Below are positions 3,774-63,922 of a stretch of DNA of 64,000 nucleotides, piece after piece. The stretch is from contig JACQFL010000050.1 in NCBI GenBank assembly GCA_016200085.1, forward strand, positions 115,088-179,087. The letters are read 5' to 3'. How positions within the stretch are numbered: position 1 is the stretch's first letter; each line of letters begins with the position of its first letter. This DNA is from Candidatus Rokuibacteriota bacterium. GTDB lineage: Bacteria > Methylomirabilota > Methylomirabilia > Rokubacteriales > CSP1-6. The notes under the pieces were generated by a model. The model saw only the letters and a list, made by a program, of their open reading frames with translations. It made no database searches and was not told where the DNA came from. The position numbers and the translations under genes are program-made.

Positions 3774-4867
3774 TCCCGTTCATCGACCTCACCCGCCAGC
3801 ACGCCGGGCTCCGCGCCGAGCTCGTGGCGGCCACCGCCCGCGTCCTGGACTCGGCGCGCTTCGTGCTGGGCCCCGAGGGCGAGGCGCTGGAAGCGGAGCT
3901 GGCCGCCCTGGCCGGGGTGCGCCACGGCATCGGCGTGGGGTCGGGGACGGATGCGCTGCGCCTGGCCCTCACGGCCGTCGGGGTGGGCCCCGGCGACGAA
4001 GTCCTGACGCCGGCATTCTCGTTCGTGGCGTCCGCCTCCACCATCCTGATGGCGGGGGCCGTGCCGGTGTTCGTGGACGTCGACCCGGCCACCTTCGCGC
4101 TCGACCCGGACGCAGCGGAGCGCGCGATCAGCGCGCGCACGCGCGCCGTCGTCGCCGTGCACCTCTACGGCCACCCGGCGCCCATGGACGCCGTGGGCGC
4201 GCTCGCGCGCCGCCACGGGCTGGCCGTGATCGAGGACGCGGCGCAGGCGGTGGGCGCGTCGTATGCGGGTCGCCCCGTCGGCGCGTGGTCGGACGCCACC
4301 TGCCTGTCGTTCTATCCGACGAAGAACCTCGGCGCGGCGGGCGATGCGGGCATGGTGCTGACCGACCGTGACGACGTCGCCGCGCGCGTGCGGCGGCTGC
4401 GCCATCACGGCGACGGCGGGCGCTACCGCCACGTCGAGCTCGGCCTGTGCAGCCGGCTCGACGAGATGCAGGCGGCCGTGCTGCGTGTGAAGCTCCGGCG
4501 CCTGGCCGCCTGGACCGACGAGCACCGGCGGATCGCCGCGTGCTACGACGAGGGCCTGGCCGGCCTGCTGCTGGTGCGGCCCGTCGAGCGGCCGCCGGCC
4601 CGCCACGTCTATCATCTGTACACGGTGCGGCACCCGGACCGTGACCACCTCGCCAAGCAGCTGGCGGACCTCGGCGTCGGCACGGCCGTGCACTATCCGC
4701 TGCCCGTGCCCGGCCAGCCCCTGTTCGGCGGGGGCGGGGAGGGCCGCTGGCCCGAGGCCTGGCGCGCGTCGCGCGAGGTCCTGTCGCTGCCCTGCTTCGC
4801 CGGGATGCGGGACGAGGAGATCCACGCGGTCGTGCGGGCGGTGCGGCTCGCGTGCGGAGGGGCCTGA
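3770..4867 (+). CDS. DegT/DnrJ/EryC1/StrS family sugar aminotransferase (ArnB-like)
   Basis: VIPFIDLTRQHAGLRAELVAATARVLDSARFVLGPEGEALEAELA...GVGSGTDAL is typical of PLP-dependent sugar aminotransferases. A GTG start overlaps the lptD stop. The ORF-track start at 3608 is an upstream over-extension. Confidence 0.8.
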   Translation: MIPFIDLTRQHAGLRAELVAATARVLDSARFVLGPEGEALEAELAALAGVRHGIGVGSGTDALRLALTAVGVGPGDEVLTPAFSFVASASTILMAGAVPVFVDVDPATFALDPDAAERAISARTRAVVAVHLYGHPAPMDAVGALARRHGLAVIEDAAQAVGASYAGRPVGAWSDATCLSFYPTKNLGAAGDAGMVLTDRDDVAARVRRLRHHGDGGRYRHVELGLCSRLDEMQAAVLRVKLRRLAAWTDEHRRIAACYDEGLAGLLLVRPVERPPARHVYHLYTVRHPDRDHLAKQLADLGVGTAVHYPLPVPGQPLFGGGGEGRWPEAWRASREVLSLPCFAGMRDEEIHAVVRAVRLACGGA

Positions 4868-4868
4868 G

Positions 4869-6185
4869 ATGAGCGATCGCTCAGCGGCCGAGGAGCTCCA
4901 CGAGCGGCTCAGCGGGACGCCGACCATCGGCGTCGTGGGCCTGGGTTACGTCGGCCTGCCCCTGGCGGTGGCCTTCGCCGAGTCGGGCGCCCGCGTCGTC
5001 GGCATCGACCTCGATCCCGCGCGCGTGGCCGGCGTCACCGGCGGACGGAGCTTCGTGGAGGACGTGCCCACGGAGGCGCTGCGGCGCCTCGTGGCCTCCG
5101 GCCGTCTGAGCGCGACCGACGACTTCGCGGTCCTCAAGGACGCCGACGCCATCGTCATCTGCGTGCCGACGCCGCTCGGCAAGTCCAAGGAGCCCGACAT
5201 CTCGTTCGTCGTCGGCGCGGCCGACGCGGTGGCGGCGGTCGCCCGGCGGGCGCAGCTCGTGGTGCTCGAATCGACGACCTATCCCGGCAGCACCCAGGAA
5301 ATCCTCCAGCCACGGCTCGAGGCGCGTGGCCTCACGCCGGGCGAAGACGTCTTCCTCGCCTTCTCGCCCGAGCGCATCGATCCCGGCAACCGGCAGTTCG
5401 GGCTGCACAACATCCCCAAGGTCGTGGGCGGCCTCACCCCGCTCTGCCGCGAGCTCGCCATCGCGCTCTACGCGCGCATCACGCCCCGGGTGGTGACCGT
5501 CTCCAGCCCCGCCACCGCGGAGATGGTGAAGCTGCTCGAGAACACCTTCCGCTCGGTGAACATCGCGCTCGCCAACGAGTTCGCGATCATGTGCCGCCGG
5601 CTCGGCATCTCGGTGTGGGAGGTCATCGGGGCCGCCGCCACCAAGCCCTTCGGCTTCATGCCGTTCTATCCCGGGCCGGGGCTCGGCGGTCACTGCCTGC
5701 CCTCCGATCCGCACTACCTCAGCTGGAAGGTGCGCCTGGCCGGCTACGAGCCGCGCTTCATCTCGTTCGCCGACGAGATCAATCGCCAGATGCCCACGTA
5801 CGTCCTCCAGATGGTCACCGACGCGCTCAACGACGGCGGCCGCGCCGTGCGCGGCTCCCGCATCCTCGCCCTCGGCGTGGCCTACAAGCCGAACGTCGCC
5901 GATGTGCGCGACTCGCCCGCGCTCGAGATCGTCGAGGCCCTGGTGCTCAAGGGCGCCCGCGTCGCCTACGCCGACCCCTTCGTGCCCGCCATCAGCATCA
6001 GCGGGGTGAGCCTGCGCGCGGTGGACCTGGACGCGGTGGACGTCGCCGACTGGGACGTGGTCCTCGCGCTCACCGCGCACGCCAGCTTCGACTGGCCTCG
6101 GATCGTCCGCCGCGCGCGCCTCGTCATCGACACCCGGAACGCGACGGCGGCGCTCGGGCCGTCCCGCAACGTCATCAAGCTCTGA
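4869..6185 (+). CDS. nucleotide-sugar dehydrogenase (UDP-glucose/GDP-mannose dehydrogenase family; Ugd/WecC-like)
   Basis: MSDRSAAEELHERLSGTPTIGVVGLGYVGLPLAVAFAESGARVVGIDLD carries the N-terminal NAD Rossmann fold, with a catalytic-Cys region (GLGGHCLPSDPHYL). The ATG at 4869 lies just after the aminotransferase stop. Confidence 0.85.
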   Translation: MSDRSAAEELHERLSGTPTIGVVGLGYVGLPLAVAFAESGARVVGIDLDPARVAGVTGGRSFVEDVPTEALRRLVASGRLSATDDFAVLKDADAIVICVPTPLGKSKEPDISFVVGAADAVAAVARRAQLVVLESTTYPGSTQEILQPRLEARGLTPGEDVFLAFSPERIDPGNRQFGLHNIPKVVGGLTPLCRELAIALYARITPRVVTVSSPATAEMVKLLENTFRSVNIALANEFAIMCRRLGISVWEVIGAAATKPFGFMPFYPGPGLGGHCLPSDPHYLSWKVRLAGYEPRFISFADEINRQMPTYVLQMVTDALNDGGRAVRGSRILALGVAYKPNVADVRDSPALEIVEALVLKGARVAYADPFVPAISISGVSLRAVDLDAVDVADWDVVLALTAHASFDWPRIVRRARLVIDTRNATAALGPSRNVIKL

Positions 6186-7060
6186 TTCCCGCGCTGCTCT
6201 CGTCGCTCCGGCCCCGCCAGTGGGTCAAGAATCTGTTCGTCTTCGCCGGGCTCATCTTCGGCCACCGCCTGTTCACGCCCCTGGTGTGGCCCGCCCTTGG
6301 CGCCTTCGCCATCTTCTGCGCGCTGTCGGGGGCAATCTACCTGCTCAACGACGTGGCCGACCGCGACAAGGACCGGCTGCACCCGACCAAGCGGCTCCGG
6401 CCCATCGCCTCCGGCCGGCTGTCCGTGCCGGCCGCGGTGACGGCCGCCGTCGTGCTCGTCGCGGCGGGCCTGGCCGCGGGAACCCGCCTGGGCCACGCCT
6501 TCGTCGGCGTCGCCCTCGCCTACGCCATCCTCCTGACGGTGTACTCGGCATGGCTCAAGCACTTCGTCATCGTGGACGTGCTGGTGGTGTCGGCCGGCTT
6601 CGTGCTCCGGGCCGTGGGGGGGGCGGTGGCCGTGGATGTCGAGATCTCGGGCTGGCTCCTGATCTGCACGATCCTGATCGCGCTCTTCCTCGCCCTCGGC
6701 AAGCGGCGGTACGAGTACCTCGCGCTCGGCGAGGCGGCCGGCCGCTACCGCCCCATCCTCGCCGAGTACAGCGCGGGCCTGCTCGACCAGATGATCGCCG
6801 TGGTGACCGCCTCCACCGTGACCGCGTACGCGCTCTACACGATGTCGCCGGAGACGGTGGCCAAGTTCCACACGCACCTGCTGCCCGCCACGCTGCCCTT
6901 CGTGCTCTACGGCATCTTCCGATACCTCTATCTCCTGTACGCGCGGCAGCTCGGCGGCAACCCCTCGGAGCTCTTCCTCAACGACCTGCCCCTGCTCGCC
7001 AACACCGTGCTCTGGATCCTCGCGGTGCTCGCGCTCATCTACGGCCCGCGCCTCGGGTAG
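6182..7060 (+). CDS. UbiA-family prenyltransferase, decaprenyl-phosphate phosphoribosyltransferase-like
   Basis: LRPRQWVKNLFVFAGLIFG...YLLNDVADRDKDRLHPTKRLRPIASG carries the NDxxDxxxD motif and multiple TM helices. No ATG/GTG/TTG precedes the conserved N-terminus, so a CTG (6182) or ATT start is inferred. The TAG stop forms part of the TAGAAT box of the next gene. Confidence 0.7.
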   Translation: MIPALLSSLRPRQWVKNLFVFAGLIFGHRLFTPLVWPALGAFAIFCALSGAIYLLNDVADRDKDRLHPTKRLRPIASGRLSVPAAVTAAVVLVAAGLAAGTRLGHAFVGVALAYAILLTVYSAWLKHFVIVDVLVVSAGFVLRAVGGAVAVDVEISGWLLICTILIALFLALGKRRYEYLALGEAAGRYRPILAEYSAGLLDQMIAVVTASTVTAYALYTMSPETVAKFHTHLLPATLPFVLYGIFRYLYLLYARQLGGNPSELFLNDLPLLANTVLWILAVLALIYGPRLG

Positions 7061-7072
7061 AATCGGAGCGGC

Positions 7073-9718
7073 ATGCCGAGCCAGGTCGCCGTCCTGCGCA
7101 CGCGCCCCGAGACCGTCGTCGAGGACTACGGGCGCCTCATGCGGCTGGTGAAGTACGACCAGATCCTCTCGCGCGACACCGATCTCATCCTCAAGCTGAA
7201 CCTCTCGTGGACGAAGTACTTCCCGGCGTGCTCGAGCCAGCCCTGGCAGGTCGACGGCATCCTCAAGACGCTGGTCGACGACGGCTACGAGCGGCGGCGC
7301 CTGCTCCCCGTCGAGAACAAGACCGTGGTCACCAACCCCGACGAGGGCTGCCGCGCCAACAAGTGGCGGCCCGTGCTCCAGCGCCACGGCGTCGGCTTCA
7401 CCGCGCTGCCCGACGTCGAGTGGATCGTCTATCCGTTCAGGTCGCCCCTGCTGAAGCTCAACCGGATCTTTCCCGAGGGCATCCAGATCCCGAAGCTGTA
7501 CCCGGGCAAGAACGTGCTCCACCTGCCCACCGTGAAGTGCGTCCATCCAGATACGGAGATCTTGCTCAGCGACGGCAGATTGATTGGTGCTGAGAGCCTC
7601 GTGAAGGAGTGGCAGGTTCGGGAGCCCGTGCAGTGGCTGCCTGACGGCGATGCCGTCAGTGAAGGTGAGACGAGCGTGGTCTCACTTCGACCAGACGGGC
7701 TCCGCGGTGATCATGCCACCCACTTCTGGCGTACCCCGGTGACCGATGGGCTCGTGTGTGCCATCCGGACTCGTACTGGTCGGCAGGTGACGACATCGAC
7801 GGCACACCCATTCCTTACGCCTGAGGGTTGGAAGCGCGCGACAGACATACGTGTCGGCGACAGAATCGCGGTGGCCCGAAGAATTAGAATTCAAGGTCGC
7901 AGCCAACCGTTGCCCGCAGTCCCAGCGCTGGGCCACGACTCGCTCGATCTCGAGCAGTTGGAGTTTGAGGAGCAACCGCGGTTAACCGTACACGCCCAGC
8001 GCTCGATTGTTCGTGACTATCTCGACGGCGAAACGGTCGCGGAGATCGCTCGCAGGCTTCATGTGGGGCGAAAGATAGTACTGCGATTGCTCGACCGGTG
8101 CGGTGTCACTCTACGTGGTCCGTGGGTGTGGGCCCGTGTTCCCGGCGAGACATCGACGGACTTTTGGCGCTGGATGGGCTACTTCGTTGCGGAGGGTTGG
8201 GCGAGAGAGAACCATGGGTCGTTGGCGATCAACGTCGCCAACAACGATCCCGAGATCCGATCTGATTACATGGCTTTGTGCAAATCGCTATTCGGAGTAT
8301 TGCCTAGAGAGAACGCTGGGACGCTGCGGTTTAATGCCTCGAATTTGAGAAGCTTGTTCGCGCATCTCGGTTTTCGTCCGCCGACGAACGCTGCGACGAA
8401 GCATGTGCCCGATGTGTTGTTCAAGTGCCCCGATGAGGAAATCTCGGGATTCCTATCGGGGTACTTCGACGGGGACGGCACAGTTGGACCCGACGGTGTA
8501 CACGCAACCACGAAGAGTCCGCGCTTGGCCAGTCAGATCCAGATGCTGCTGGCGCGTCTCGGTGTACTCGCGTTTGTAGGTGTGTCGCGCTGCAAGGCCA
8601 CCAATCGCCCATGGACGAAGACTCAGGACTACGCAAAGATCTCGATCTATGGGCAGGATGTCGTTACATTCGCGCGTTGGGTCGGGTTTCGTTGCGCCCG
8701 CAAGCGAGCCCGGCTCCAAGAACTGGTACGTCGGCGGGCGAACGGCAGGCAACCAAGTCACTGGGATACTGTTCCAGTGCCTCCCGCTTTGTTTCGATTC
8801 GTGCGGGAGGGGCTCAAGATCACCCATCGCAGTTCGGAACGCCAGAGTGCGGTCAGCAACATTGAATGGAAACATACTGAACCTACTCGACCAGTCGTTC
8901 AGTATTTCGTTGATCTATTCGAACGACATGATACGAGCGGCCGTTTCCGCGATGAGATCGCGTATATGCGCTACCTCGCGCAAGACGACATTGCGTGGGA
9001 TCGAGTGTCGGACAAGGCTGAAAAGGCAGCTGAAGTCCCGTACCTCTACGATCTTTCAGTACGCGATTCGCGGTCGTTTATCGGCAACGGAATCGTTCTC
9101 CATAACACCCACGGCCACTCTGTCACAACGGGAGCGATAAAGAACAGCTTCGGAGGCTTGCTGAAGGAAGCCCGACACTATGCTCATGAGTTTATGCATG
9201 ACGTACTGGTTGACCTCATGTATATGCAGCGTGAGATCCATCCAGCCGCTCTGGCGGTGATGGACGGGACGGTCATGGGCGACGGCGCCGGCCCCCGTAC
9301 GATGGTGCCGCGCGAGGGCAACCTGATCCTGGCCTCGGCGGACCAGGTCGCCATCGACGCCATCGCCGCGCGGATCATGGGCTTCGACCCGCTCGCCATC
9401 CCGTACCTCCGGATGTGCCACGAGCGCGGGCTCGGGGTGGCGGACCCCCGCGACATCGAGATCGTCGGCGACGAGGACGCGGCGCGGGTCAGCATGGGCT
9501 TCAAGACCAGCCGCAGCCTGGTGATCTGGGGCGACCAGCTCATCCGGCGCGGCCCGCTCAGGCCGCTCAAGCGCCTGCTGCTGCACTCCCCCCTGGTGGT
9601 CTGGGCCCCCTTCGCCTCGAACGTCTACCACGACCTGCTCTGGTACCCGACGGTCGGCCGCGCCCGCATCCGCGCCTTCCGCGCCACGCCCTGGGGAGCC
9701 CTCTTCGAGAAGTACTGA
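7073..9718 (+). CDS. DUF362-family protein interrupted by an in-frame intein (precursor 881 aa; predicted spliced product ~358 aa)
   Basis: The N-extein (155 aa, ...ILKLNLSW...KNVLHLPTVK) and C-extein (203 aa, THGHSVTTGAIKNSFGGLL...VMDGTVMGDGAGP...) join to a normal DUF362-like protein. The internal 523 aa have intein splice-junction and LAGLIDADG motifs. Confidence 0.8.
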   Translation: MPSQVAVLRTRPETVVEDYGRLMRLVKYDQILSRDTDLILKLNLSWTKYFPACSSQPWQVDGILKTLVDDGYERRRLLPVENKTVVTNPDEGCRANKWRPVLQRHGVGFTALPDVEWIVYPFRSPLLKLNRIFPEGIQIPKLYPGKNVLHLPTVKCVHPDTEILLSDGRLIGAESLVKEWQVREPVQWLPDGDAVSEGETSVVSLRPDGLRGDHATHFWRTPVTDGLVCAIRTRTGRQVTTSTAHPFLTPEGWKRATDIRVGDRIAVARRIRIQGRSQPLPAVPALGHDSLDLEQLEFEEQPRLTVHAQRSIVRDYLDGETVAEIARRLHVGRKIVLRLLDRCGVTLRGPWVWARVPGETSTDFWRWMGYFVAEGWARENHGSLAINVANNDPEIRSDYMALCKSLFGVLPRENAGTLRFNASNLRSLFAHLGFRPPTNAATKHVPDVLFKCPDEEISGFLSGYFDGDGTVGPDGVHATTKSPRLASQIQMLLARLGVLAFVGVSRCKATNRPWTKTQDYAKISIYGQDVVTFARWVGFRCARKRARLQELVRRRANGRQPSHWDTVPVPPALFRFVREGLKITHRSSERQSAVSNIEWKHTEPTRPVVQYFVDLFERHDTSGRFRDEIAYMRYLAQDDIAWDRVSDKAEKAAEVPYLYDLSVRDSRSFIGNGIVLHNTHGHSVTTGAIKNSFGGLLKEARHYAHEFMHDVLVDLMYMQREIHPAALAVMDGTVMGDGAGPRTMVPREGNLILASADQVAIDAIAARIMGFDPLAIPYLRMCHERGLGVADPRDIEIVGDEDAARVSMGFKTSRSLVIWGDQLIRRGPLRPLKRLLLHSPLVVWAPFASNVYHDLLWYPTVGRARIRAFRATPWGALFEKY
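7538..9106 (+). mobile_element. intein with LAGLIDADG homing-endonuclease domain (523 aa) inserted in the DUF362 gene
   Basis: Starts with Cys (CVHPDTEILLSDG). Block-B TxxH is present (TTSTAHPFLTPEGW). LAGLIDADG motifs are WMGYFVAEGW and SGYFDGDGTV. The intein ends GIVLHN and is followed by Thr (+1 nucleophile). Local GC is clearly lower than the flanks. Confidence 0.8.
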
Positions 9719-47924: not shown

Positions 47925-48254
47925 CCGTTCGCTCCTCCCATCGTGTGGTTGGGTGCCTCCCATCCTCCCTCGCGCGACGGTGCGCGAGTCCGTTCATTTC
48001 GTCACTGTCAACTGCGCGTCGACCGAATGCAAGGAAAAACTGCGCTCGCGACGCGCGCCGAGGCGCCGGCGAGGCCCGCCCAAAGGTGCTCGCGGACGCG
48101 TTTTTTTCTTGCAATCGCAAAAACCGGACCATACAGTGACTTCAATTGACTGACGCGGCGAGATTTTTCGTCGCGCGAGCGGCGGCGCCGGGCGACGGGC
48201 CGCAGGAGACGTGCGGTAGATGACTGGACCGGACCAGACAGGAGGGAACGTGGA

Positions 48255-48665
48255 TTGAACGCGCTGGGACGCCATCTCCTCCTCGAGTTGTTCGATTGCG
48301 ACTCCGACGCCATCAACGACCTCGAGACCGTGAAGGGCGCTCTGGTCGAAGCGGCGAAGCGGGCACAGGCCACCATCGTCGACGTCGTCTTCCACGAGTT
48401 CAACCCGTTCGGCATCAGCGGTGTCGTCGTCATCGCCGAATCGCACCTCTCGGTCCACACCTGGCCCGAGTACCGGTACGCCGCGGTCGACATCTTCTCC
48501 TGCGGCGACACCCTGCAGCCGGAGATCGCGGCCACCTACCTCGTGAAGGAGTTCGGCGCCGGGAAGACCTCGGTGGTCGATGTCCAGCGAGGCATGTTCC
48601 TCAACGCGCCGAGGCCCCTCAACAACAAGACGGTGACCAGCAAGGCGGCAGTCGCCTTCCGTTGA
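48255..48665 (+). CDS. speH: S-adenosylmethionine decarboxylase proenzyme (small bacterial/archaeal type)
   Basis: VVVIAESHLSVHTWPEYRYAAVDIFSCG has the E-S self-cleavage site. TTG start with RBS GGAGGGA. Confidence 0.85.
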   Translation: MNALGRHLLLELFDCDSDAINDLETVKGALVEAAKRAQATIVDVVFHEFNPFGISGVVVIAESHLSVHTWPEYRYAAVDIFSCGDTLQPEIAATYLVKEFGAGKTSVVDVQRGMFLNAPRPLNNKTVTSKAAVAFR

Positions 48666-48672
48666 TCACCCC

Positions 48673-49593
48673 TTGATCACTCCACAGTCGTACAAGTGGT
48701 TCTTCGAGCCCACCACCCCCGTCGAGGGGCACATGCACGCCATCCGGCGGACGGTGGTCGAGGCCCAGACCAAGTTCCAGCACGTCGAGATCCTGGAAAC
48801 CGCCGCCTATGGCAAGACCTTGATCCTCGACGGGAGGATCCAGTCCAGCCAGGGTGACGAGTTCATCTACCACGAGGCGCTCTGTCACCCCGGCCTGCTC
48901 GCCGTGGAGGGGGCGCCCCGGAGCGCGCTCGTCATCGGCGGGGGCGAGGGCGCCACCCTGCGCGAGATCCTCCGCTACCCCTCGATCCAGCGGGCGGTCA
49001 TGGTCGACATCGACGGCGAGGTCGTCGAGCTGTGCCGGCAGCACCTGCCCGAGATGCACCGGGGCGCCTTCGACGACCCCCGCACGGAGGTGCGTCACGA
49101 AGACGCTCGCGCCTACCTCGAGCACGGCCGCGAGCCGTTCGATTTCATCACCATCGATCTCACCGAGCCCCTCGAGGAGGGACCCGCCTGCATGCTCTTC
49201 ACCCGGGAGTTCTACGGCCTCGTCCGCGACCGCCTGACGCCGGGCGGGGCCATGACCCTGCAAGCCGGCATGACCAAGATCGGGGAGCTCGCCTTCTACA
49301 CCTCGATCCACCGCACGCTGCGCGAGGTCTTTCCAATCGTCGCCGGCTACCAGACGTTCATCTCGTGCTTCGGCACGCCGTGGGGCTTCATCGCGGCCAC
49401 CAGAAAGGTCGATCCGCGCAAGCAGGACGCCGCCGCGATCGACCGCCTGATCGCGGACCGCGTGAAGGGTGACCTGGCGTACTGGGACGGGCAGACCCAC
49501 CTGCACGCCTTCGGGCTGCCGAAGTTCGTGCGCAAGGCCATCGACGCCCAGAGCCGCATCGTCACGGACCGGAACCCCTTGATCGTGTCCTGA
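48673..49593 (+). CDS. speE: spermidine synthase
   Basis: WFFE...ILDGRIQSSQGDEFIYHEAL...VIGGGEGATLREIL...VDIDGEVVE are spermidine-synthase motifs. TTG start. Confidence 0.85.
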   Translation: MITPQSYKWFFEPTTPVEGHMHAIRRTVVEAQTKFQHVEILETAAYGKTLILDGRIQSSQGDEFIYHEALCHPGLLAVEGAPRSALVIGGGEGATLREILRYPSIQRAVMVDIDGEVVELCRQHLPEMHRGAFDDPRTEVRHEDARAYLEHGREPFDFITIDLTEPLEEGPACMLFTREFYGLVRDRLTPGGAMTLQAGMTKIGELAFYTSIHRTLREVFPIVAGYQTFISCFGTPWGFIAATRKVDPRKQDAAAIDRLIADRVKGDLAYWDGQTHLHAFGLPKFVRKAIDAQSRIVTDRNPLIVS

Positions 49594-63544: not shown

Positions 63545-63620
63545 CGGGCGGATAGCTCAGCCGGGAGAGCACAGCCCTTACAAGGCTGGGGTCGCAGGTT
63601 CGAGCCCTGCTCCGCCCACC
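63545..63620 (+). tRNA. tRNA-Val (anticodon TAC), CCA encoded
   Basis: GGGCGGATAGCTCAGCCGGGAGAGCACAGCCCTTACAAGGCTGGGGTCGCAGGTTCGAGCCCTGCTCCGCCCACCA folds as a cloverleaf (7-bp acceptor, GCTC/GAGC D-stem, CAGCC/GGCTG anticodon stem, loop CTTACAA, GCAGG/CCTGC T-stem, TTCGAGC T-loop). Confidence 0.85.
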
Positions 63621-63922
63621 ATCTTGAGATCGGGGCGCGCGCTGCGCTGGACTCGTTCAAGCGAAGGGGGCAAGGCCCCCCCCTCGGACTCTCCCGGCCG
63701 ATGCCCCCCATCGCCGGACGGCTTTCGCGTGAAATGCCGGACGCGTGTCGCCCTGGCTCACCGCCCACAAGCGGATGGCGCCGGCGGAGCCGGCGCTCGG
63801 AAGACGCGCAGGATGTCCTTGCTGTGTCAAGAAATCCGACACGGAAAGGAACTCCACGGGGTTGCGACGAAGCCCAGAATTCGGGCTCGACTCCCCGGAG
63901 CGGCTGGCCTAGAATCCCCGCC

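Follow-up and report, generated by a model that had tools for sequence, protein, structure and literature searches.

Gene Organisation and Predicted Spliced Product

The stretch of DNA that was analysed here, a window of 64,000 nucleotides (nt) from contig JACQFL010000050.1 of the Candidatus Rokuibacteriota assembly GCA_016200085.1 (positions 115,088 to 179,087 of the forward strand), carries a gene for a protein of the DUF362 family that is split by a 523-amino-acid (aa) intein. The features of this gene are collected in Table 1, in which positions are those of the window. Throughout the text, K155, T156, H157, K167 and H182 are numbered on the spliced DUF362 protein, and Cys1 to Asn523 are numbered on the intein; a slash marks a junction between extein and intein or, in intein-free alleles, the corresponding point of insertion. 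The insert begins with CVHPDTEI, ends with GIVLHN and is followed by THGH, which places the insertion point at K155/T156, in frame and two residues ahead of H157.

Table 1. Features of the intein-containing DUF362 gene and their positions in the window
Feature	Position	Strand	Basis or remark
Precursor gene, DUF362 protein split by the intein	7073..9718	+	881 codons and stop; reading frame unbroken
N-extein, 155 aa, last residues ...LPTVK (K155 = -1)	7073..7537	+	GC3 0.98
Intein, 523 aa, Cys1 to Asn523	7538..9106	+	codons 156-678; GC 0.58, GC3 0.64
N-terminal splicing (Hint) region, block A (Cys1) and block B (S-T-A-H, His90)	7538..7882	+	TIGR01445; model beta strands at residues 7-113
Three-helix accessory segment resembling a helix-turn-helix (intein residues 151-187)	7988..8098	+	weak Pfam HTH_28/HTH_23 matches; model helices
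LAGLIDADG endonuclease core	8150..8653	+	PF14528; PI-PkoII alignment; I-DmoI fold matches
LAGLIDADG motif 1, FWRWMGYFVAEGW (...GYFVAEG, Glu219)	8162..8200	+	
LAGLIDADG motif 2, SGYFDGDGTV (Asp313)	8456..8485	+	
Helical region between endonuclease and C-terminal splicing strands (intein residues 387-480)	8696..8977	+	model helices
C-terminal splicing region, blocks F and G, ...YDLSV...FIGNGIVLHN	8990..9106	+	TIGR01443
C-extein, 203 aa	9107..9715	+	Thr+1 9107..9109; H157 9110..9112; K167 9140..9142; H182 9185..9187
First 48 C-extein codons, putative co-conversion tract	9107..9250	+	GC3 0.60, intein-like
GC, guanine plus cytosine content; GC3, GC content at third codon positions.

When the two exteins were joined (155 + 203 = 358 aa), the resulting protein aligned contiguously to the Pfam DUF362 model (PF04015; profile positions 2-200 of 200, E=5e-21) with 76 bits against a gathering cut-off of 24, whereas the unspliced open reading frame (ORF) matched positions 110-200 of the profile only, starting from residue 679, which is Thr+1. 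Searching with the joined exteins gave thousands of matches; among the best 120 intein-free orthologues, which were 82-88% identical to the query, most were exactly 358 aa long and the others 354-363 aa, and they belonged to Methylomirabilota or Rokubacteria wherever they were named. Because most of these orthologues have exactly the length of the spliced product at such a high identity, the insertion is precise to the residue. An earlier interpretation of this DNA, made from the letters and translations only (hereafter the sequence-only reading), had given the same extent for the ORF and its insert, which translation bore out, and had proposed that 155 and 203 aa make up a DUF362 protein of normal length, which agrees with both the contiguous Pfam match and the 358-aa orthologues. 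The ORFs on the minus strand within the intein are short, of the kind that is found in every frame of this high-GC sequence, and were given no weight.

Splicing Domain of the Insert

The insert matched the Pfam model Intein_splicing (PF14890, E=1e-19) as well as the NCBIfam models intein_Nterm (TIGR01445), which covers residues 156-249 of the precursor and starts exactly at 156, and intein_Cterm (TIGR01443), which covers residues 657-679; the scores of the latter two exceeded their cut-offs. Moreover, the intein portions of many intein-bearing NCBIfam models also aligned to it. In an alignment of 58 homologues, the N-terminal splicing positions C1, T6, G13, H90 and P91 and the C-terminal positions D505, F514 and N523 were invariant and H522 was at least 90% conserved, while the window intein differed at only five of the positions with a conservation of 90% or more, and all five changes were conservative. 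Its C-terminal junction reads ...VLHN/T, and the +1 residue was Thr or Cys in all homologues. The AlphaFold (AF2) model of the insert was of high confidence (predicted local distance difference test, pLDDT, 93.4), and its best PDB match in Foldseek was the intein TliVMA (7qss, E=1e-26, template modelling (TM) score 0.81), followed by PI-PkoII, PhoVMA, PI-PfuI and PI-SceI; mini-inteins matched the splicing part of the model.

Because Cys1, the block-F Asp and the C-terminal Asn-Thr pair are all present, the insert is an ordinary class-1 intein, and the sequence together with the model supports one that carries a double-motif LAGLIDADG endonuclease and precisely splits a DUF362 protein. Two other classes, a class-3 intein and a bacterial intein-like domain, were considered and rejected, as these same residues are all canonical. 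The opening Cys, the ...GIVLHN end and the Thr at +1 had already been recognised in the sequence-only reading and were recovered by translation, profiles and conservation alike, and the profile searches that it had proposed for the insert returned both intein and LAGLIDADG matches. That reading had also described a TxxH motif in block B (TTSTAHPF); the block-B His stands, but the motif reads S-T-A-H and is thus SxxH. Thr is the more usual residue three positions before this His.

After translation, splicing would begin with an N-S acyl shift at Cys1, followed by the attack of Thr+1 on the thioester; cyclisation of the terminal Asn523 would then release the intein, and an O-N shift would remake the peptide bond, which would leave a ligated DUF362 protein of 358 aa and, separate from it, the intein of 523 aa. 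Alternatively, the insert could be a retained domain that does not splice, i.e., a domesticated module of Hint and endonuclease, or the gene could be a pseudogene. In favour of this view, the intein of a few homologues ends in HS or SN, which is not canonical, and the splicing of the window protein is what we infer from its residues. However, Cys1, His90, Asp505, His522, Asn523 and Thr+1 are intact and conserved, the ORF is uninterrupted, and a retained insert would split the strand of the invariant K155 and H157 in a strongly conserved protein, so we regard this explanation as very improbable.

Endonuclease Core and Accessory Segments

The Pfam model LAGLIDADG_3 (PF14528) matched the insert in two stretches (E=2e-17), and both LAGLIDADG motifs were found where the sequence-only reading had placed them. 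In both, an acidic residue (Glu219 and Asp313, respectively) precedes the last Gly. Among the same 58 homologues, the endonuclease positions G214, Y215, A218, G220, K288, Y309, D311 and G312 were invariant, and the putative catalytic residues E219 and D313 were at least 90% conserved. The endonuclease part of the model matched I-DmoI in Foldseek, and also PI-PkoII and PI-PfuI.

The segment that had earlier been described as resembling a helix-turn-helix (HTH) is in its expected place and has three helices in the model (residues 151-162, 167-174 and 178-187), but its HTH_28 and HTH_23 matches were below the threshold (17-18.5 bits against a Pfam cut-off of 24.6-25). Homologues of the intein carry precomputed matches to HTH families. 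The model further shows a helical region at residues 387-480, which is possibly involved in DNA binding; in one homologue (P0224), the equivalent region has an HTH_3 match.

Distribution and Size Variants of the Intein

The intein, used as a query, matched 126 database clusters, nearly all of which were DUF362 proteins of approximately 880 aa, and more than 100 clusters from bacteria and archaea, mini-inteins included, had an intein at the same DUF362 site. The place of insertion was the same in all 95 of the 95 full-length homologues, with the pattern PT[VMIL]K/C...HN/[TC]H. The hosts comprised Rokubacteria/Methylomirabilota, Binatia, Anaerolineae, Armatimonadota, Haliangiales, Woesearchaeota, Nanoarchaeota and Thorarchaeota, and the distribution over bacterial and archaeal phyla was patchy. 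Among genomes that each represent one species, the DUF362 clade to which the window protein belongs was found at no fewer than 584 loci, with the intein in about 14 of the best 80; phmmer retrieved 4481 DUF362 cluster representatives at E <=0.001.

The same site also harbours shortened inteins of approximately 390-470 aa and mini-inteins of approximately 175 aa that have no endonuclease (the proteins that carry such variants include P0243, 527 aa in total; P0259, 546 aa; P0269, 772 aa; P0186-P0188; P0208-P0219; P0228; and P0231), which suggests that the endonuclease has decayed repeatedly. Invasion, decay and loss are the usual pattern of a homing element, and the occurrence of full-length, shortened and mini-inteins at one site therefore corresponds to it.

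The identical 881-aa protein is present in NCBI (P0121, from the metagenome-assembled genome GCA_016178425.1 of Candidatus Rokubacteria), where its label is only 'DUF362 domain-containing protein', and in two independent Logan run assemblies; the Joint Genome Institute (JGI) often automatically labels clusters of DUF362-intein proteins 'intein/homing endonuclease'. In the literature that was searched, no paper was found that pairs DUF362 with inteins or inteins with Rokubacteria. The suggestion in the sequence-only reading that the insertion site may be new thus holds for that literature but not for the databases, in which the exact protein and the more than 100 clusters are public. The window element joins a well-known kind, and its host family and site are undescribed in the literature searched, yet are present in public databases.

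Composition Break and Probable Homing Footprint

The GC content of the window is 72%, and the 1-kb bin at positions 8001-9000, which lies in the intein, is the lowest (57%); nowhere else in the 64 kb does the GC content fall so far. GC3 drops at the intein, stays low over the first 48 codons of the C-extein (Table 1) and beyond codon 48 abruptly reaches approximately 1.0. A fit with two change points delimited a low-GC3 block at nt 7544..9250 (0.634 inside compared to 0.984 outside), whose left edge is within two codons of the intein start and which reaches 144 nt into the extein on the C side only. The difference between these 48 codons and all of the other extein codons was highly significant (Fisher p=1.9e-14). 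In the four close intein-free orthologues that were compared (L005, L007, L019 and L022), the same 48 codons had a GC3 of 0.88-0.96, and their third-position identity to the window was approximately 0.46-0.54 compared to approximately 0.65-0.75 in the rest of the gene. The amino acid identity of the tract to the orthologues was only slightly lower (0.83 compared to 0.90), and the co-conversion argument is therefore based on synonymous composition. Outside the intein-containing gene, the lowest-GC 1-kb bin of the window was at positions 48001..49000 (0.651 compared to a mean of 0.72).

Homing through the repair of a double-strand break yields a one-sided carry-over of extein sequence from the donor. 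The low-GC3 block looks like such a co-conversion tract from a recent homing event. Co-converted flanking extein codons have been described for other inteins (PMC10643990). Moreover, two further Rokubacterial loci, L008 (MGBU01000224.1) and L009 (JACPCW010000082.1), had weaker tracts, in which the GC3 of the first 48 C-extein codons was 0.73 and 0.79, respectively, and that of the remainder of the C-extein 0.93-0.97; one-sided co-conversion may thus have occurred repeatedly at the site. According to this scheme, the free intein or the precursor would cut intein-less DUF362 alleles at the K155/T156 site, and the repair would copy the intein plus a stretch of the adjoining extein DNA. To judge from the composition, the donor of the window allele would have had a lower GC content and the event would be recent, and the intein would have come from another organism. 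Taken together, it is very probable that the window carries a class-1 intein with a double-motif LAGLIDADG homing endonuclease at K155/T156 of a DUF362 protein of Candidatus Rokubacteria (Methylomirabilota), and this intein has probably homed recently.

Several points weigh against this conclusion. A close donor of the window intein was searched for and not found, the best match being 61% identical, so that 'recent' is a statement about composition alone. The GC3 of the intein was below that of the extein in all of the high-GC hosts examined, so some of the GC3 difference may be intrinsic to the element and need not indicate that it arrived recently. Furthermore, that the intein splices, that its endonuclease is active and in which direction it was transferred are only what we infer. 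The window intein forms a long branch, its identity to other inteins not exceeding 61%.

The lower GC3 of the intein in every high-GC host and the missing near-identical donor would suit an intein that can splice but has an inactive endonuclease and is inherited only vertically, the low GC3 of the intein and the adjoining extein having another cause, for example a relaxation of the selection on codons or a mutational effect confined to the region; the truncated and mini-inteins at the site demonstrate that the endonuclease does become lost. Such purely vertical inheritance, however, does not align well with the conservation of the endonuclease motifs and of the putative catalytic Glu219 and Asp313, with the retention of nearly all of the family-conserved positions in the window copy or with a low-GC3 tract that enters host codons whose GC3 is high in the orthologues and then stops abruptly. 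In addition, the divergence of the intein and the extein is decoupled: within the phylum, their identities were uncorrelated (Spearman 0.04, 2211 pairs), and in some pairs the exteins were 93-97% identical and the intein only 55-67%. We therefore consider vertical inheritance alone to be unlikely. A sharp change in composition in a metagenome-assembled genome could also result from an assembly chimera of reads from two organisms. This explanation can hardly be credited, since the identical 881-aa product was obtained on contigs of one NCBI assembly and in the two independent Logan run assemblies, the left composition boundary coincides so closely with the start of the intein, and more than 95 homologues have the same architecture.

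Flanking Residues and Resistant-Looking Alleles

Val was found at +1 (K-V-H) in 25 of the 120 intein-free orthologues (21%), for example in L005 (6001-7077, P0005), which reads ...PTQK/VHGH, and Thr+1 is therefore dispensable for the host. Many other intein-free orthologues vary at positions -2 to -4 (PSVK, CTVK, PTCK and PTQK), and the variants PSVK, CTVK and PTCK were absent from the intein-bearing alleles, all of which keep PT[VMIL]K except for one that ends in PTVE. With Val at +1, an allele would be unable to splice out the intein without co-conversion of this codon, so alleles of this type may be resistant; by analogy, both the Val+1 and the -2 to -4 variants may withstand invasion or splicing, although the allele counts are uncorrected for phylogeny. 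In the haloarchaeal MCM and PolB genes, an allele whose flanking residue does not suit the intein is invaded only if it is co-converted (PMC10643990).

The Host Protein and Its Likeness to Lactate Racemase LarA

Neither sequence nor profile searches retrieved a relevant PDB entry for the spliced DUF362 protein. The model of an intein-free orthologue (P0001, pLDDT 94), however, had strong Foldseek matches to LarA-family enzymes only (probability 1.0), and the modelled DUF362 protein has the LarA fold. This aligns well with the assignment of DUF362 and the N-terminal domain of LarA to one Pfam clan (PMC11770544). Moreover, the LarA of L. plantarum matched the Pfam DUF362 model (E=3-5e-5), through which the two proteins can be placed in a common register. 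Residues 148-182 of the DUF362 protein align gap-free to profile positions 102-136; in LarA, Lys184 is at position 121, His200 at 136 and residue 153 at 90, which places His174 at 111. At profile positions 111, 121 and 136, the DUF362 protein thus has H157, K167 and H182, and LarA has H174, K184 and H200, so the former residues correspond to His174, which is a catalytic acid/base of LarA, to Lys184, which binds the cofactor, and to His200, which is the fourth nickel ligand (PMC11770544). K155, H157, K167 and H182 were invariant in the alignments of the intein-hosting subfamilies (41-91% identity). According to this alignment and the model, the insertion point is predicted to lie in an active-site strand, two residues before the predicted catalytic His, and an unspliced intein would break this strand.

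This correspondence must be set against several results that limit it. The LarA match to the Pfam DUF362 model was marginal (23.9-24.5 bits), and the register was read from the coordinates of truncated fragments on that model. An hhalign comparison of DUF362 alignments with a three-sequence LarA alignment was not significant, and at low stringency it gave another register, in which LarA His174 was opposite residues 134-145 and not H157. Our own hidden Markov model (HMM) of 67 DUF362 sequences had no significant match to LarA either, and because neither this HMM nor hhalign gave significance, we relied on the curated Pfam model. The alignments that covered LarA His108 and Arg75 were non-significant, and neither the spliced protein nor P0001 (up to E 10 in the case of P0001) matched Lar_N (PF09861) or LarA_C (PF21113). 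LarA-like enzymes with the nickel-pincer nucleotide are assigned to Pfam Lar_N/DUF2088 in clan CL0471, whereas the DUF362 protein matches the DUF362 model only; it also differs in that the C-terminal part of its 358 aa is helical and unlike that of LarA.

The H...G..K motif was kept in 14 of 52 more distant DUF362 representatives, and the junction ranked 126 of 349 in conservation in the broad DUF362 alignment; the statement about K155 and H157 is therefore limited to the intein-hosting subfamilies. That the junction would be among the most conserved positions of the broad alignment was considered and rejected on the basis of this rank. Many of the distant representatives (P0246-P0383) replace the His and Lys, for example with ...KTSAG..., ...RCDAS... 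or ...AVENA..., and, judging from these sequences, the DUF362 clade may include non-catalytic or differently wired paralogues. The sequence-only reading had held the KTH motif to be functionally critical. The alignment with LarA favours this for the His, but not for the Thr, given the Val that replaces it in intein-free orthologues, and the motif is lost in many distant relatives.

Genomes that have the LarB/LarC/LarE cofactor pathway but no LarA exist. It is conceivable, although we consider it rather doubtful, that the intein marks the catalytic centre of an unrecognised branch of enzymes of the nickel-pincer type. In this case, K167 and H182 of the DUF362 clade would hold a LarA-like cofactor, with H157 as a single catalytic base, and the clade would be among the enzymes that use the LarB/LarC/LarE pathway in such genomes.

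Genomic Surroundings

The order of the genes (UbiA-family prenyltransferase, DUF362, glutamyl-tRNA synthetase, histidine phosphatase, Na/Pi-PhoU transporter, P-II and GlnE) was identical at the intein-bearing and intein-free loci, and the intein is therefore the sole difference at the locus. The gene upstream of the UbiA-family gene varies among relatives: in the window, the ORF at 4641..7060 reads, from its translation, like a nucleotide-sugar dehydrogenase, whereas a DegT-type aminotransferase is found there in the syntenic loci L004 and L005. The only RNA gene that ARAGORN and Rfam detected in the 64 kb was a tRNA-Val (anticodon TAC) at 63546..63621.

Significance and Comparison with Known Inteins

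Inteins almost always occupy functionally critical positions, and the window intein would therefore point to the active site of the large and uncharacterised DUF362 family. The homing footprint and the correspondence of the insertion site to the active site of LarA go beyond what the sequence-only reading had proposed. Together with the LarA fold and the His, Lys and His that align with those of LarA, the insertion site provides a concrete and testable hypothesis for the function of DUF362. The window allele presents a clean natural footprint of homing in an uncultured phylum, in which a block of foreign composition comprises the intein and 144 nt of extein on one side, and a single gene family displays several stages of the intein life cycle, i.e., the footprint, the resistant-looking Val+1 alleles and the degenerate mini-inteins. 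It is also worth mentioning that a Thr+1 intein with a large endonuclease enlarges the pool that can be mined for protein-engineering tools.

The haloarchaeal MCM and PolB inteins are likewise mobile, and their spread depends on the flanking extein residues, which is a parallel to the Val+1 alleles observed here, although they concern another host gene and other organisms and the resistance of the Val+1 alleles is presumed. As regards architecture, TliVMA (7qss), PI-PkoII (2cw7), PI-PfuI (1dq3) and PI-SceI similarly have a Hint domain that is split by a double-motif LAGLIDADG endonuclease, and the solved archaeal endonuclease inteins, like the window intein, have additional modules that resemble DNA-binding domains. 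The structural likeness of the window intein to the solved endonuclease inteins (Foldseek E=1e-26 to 2e-17, TM <=0.81) was accompanied by an identity of only 14-18%, with a sequence similarity to PI-PkoII at E=4e-17. The solved inteins reside in V-ATPase, DNA polymerase or ribonucleotide reductase, whereas the host of the window intein is a DUF362 protein, and the window intein is further set apart from them by its Thr at +1, the SxxH of its block B and the helical segments at residues 151-187 and 387-480.

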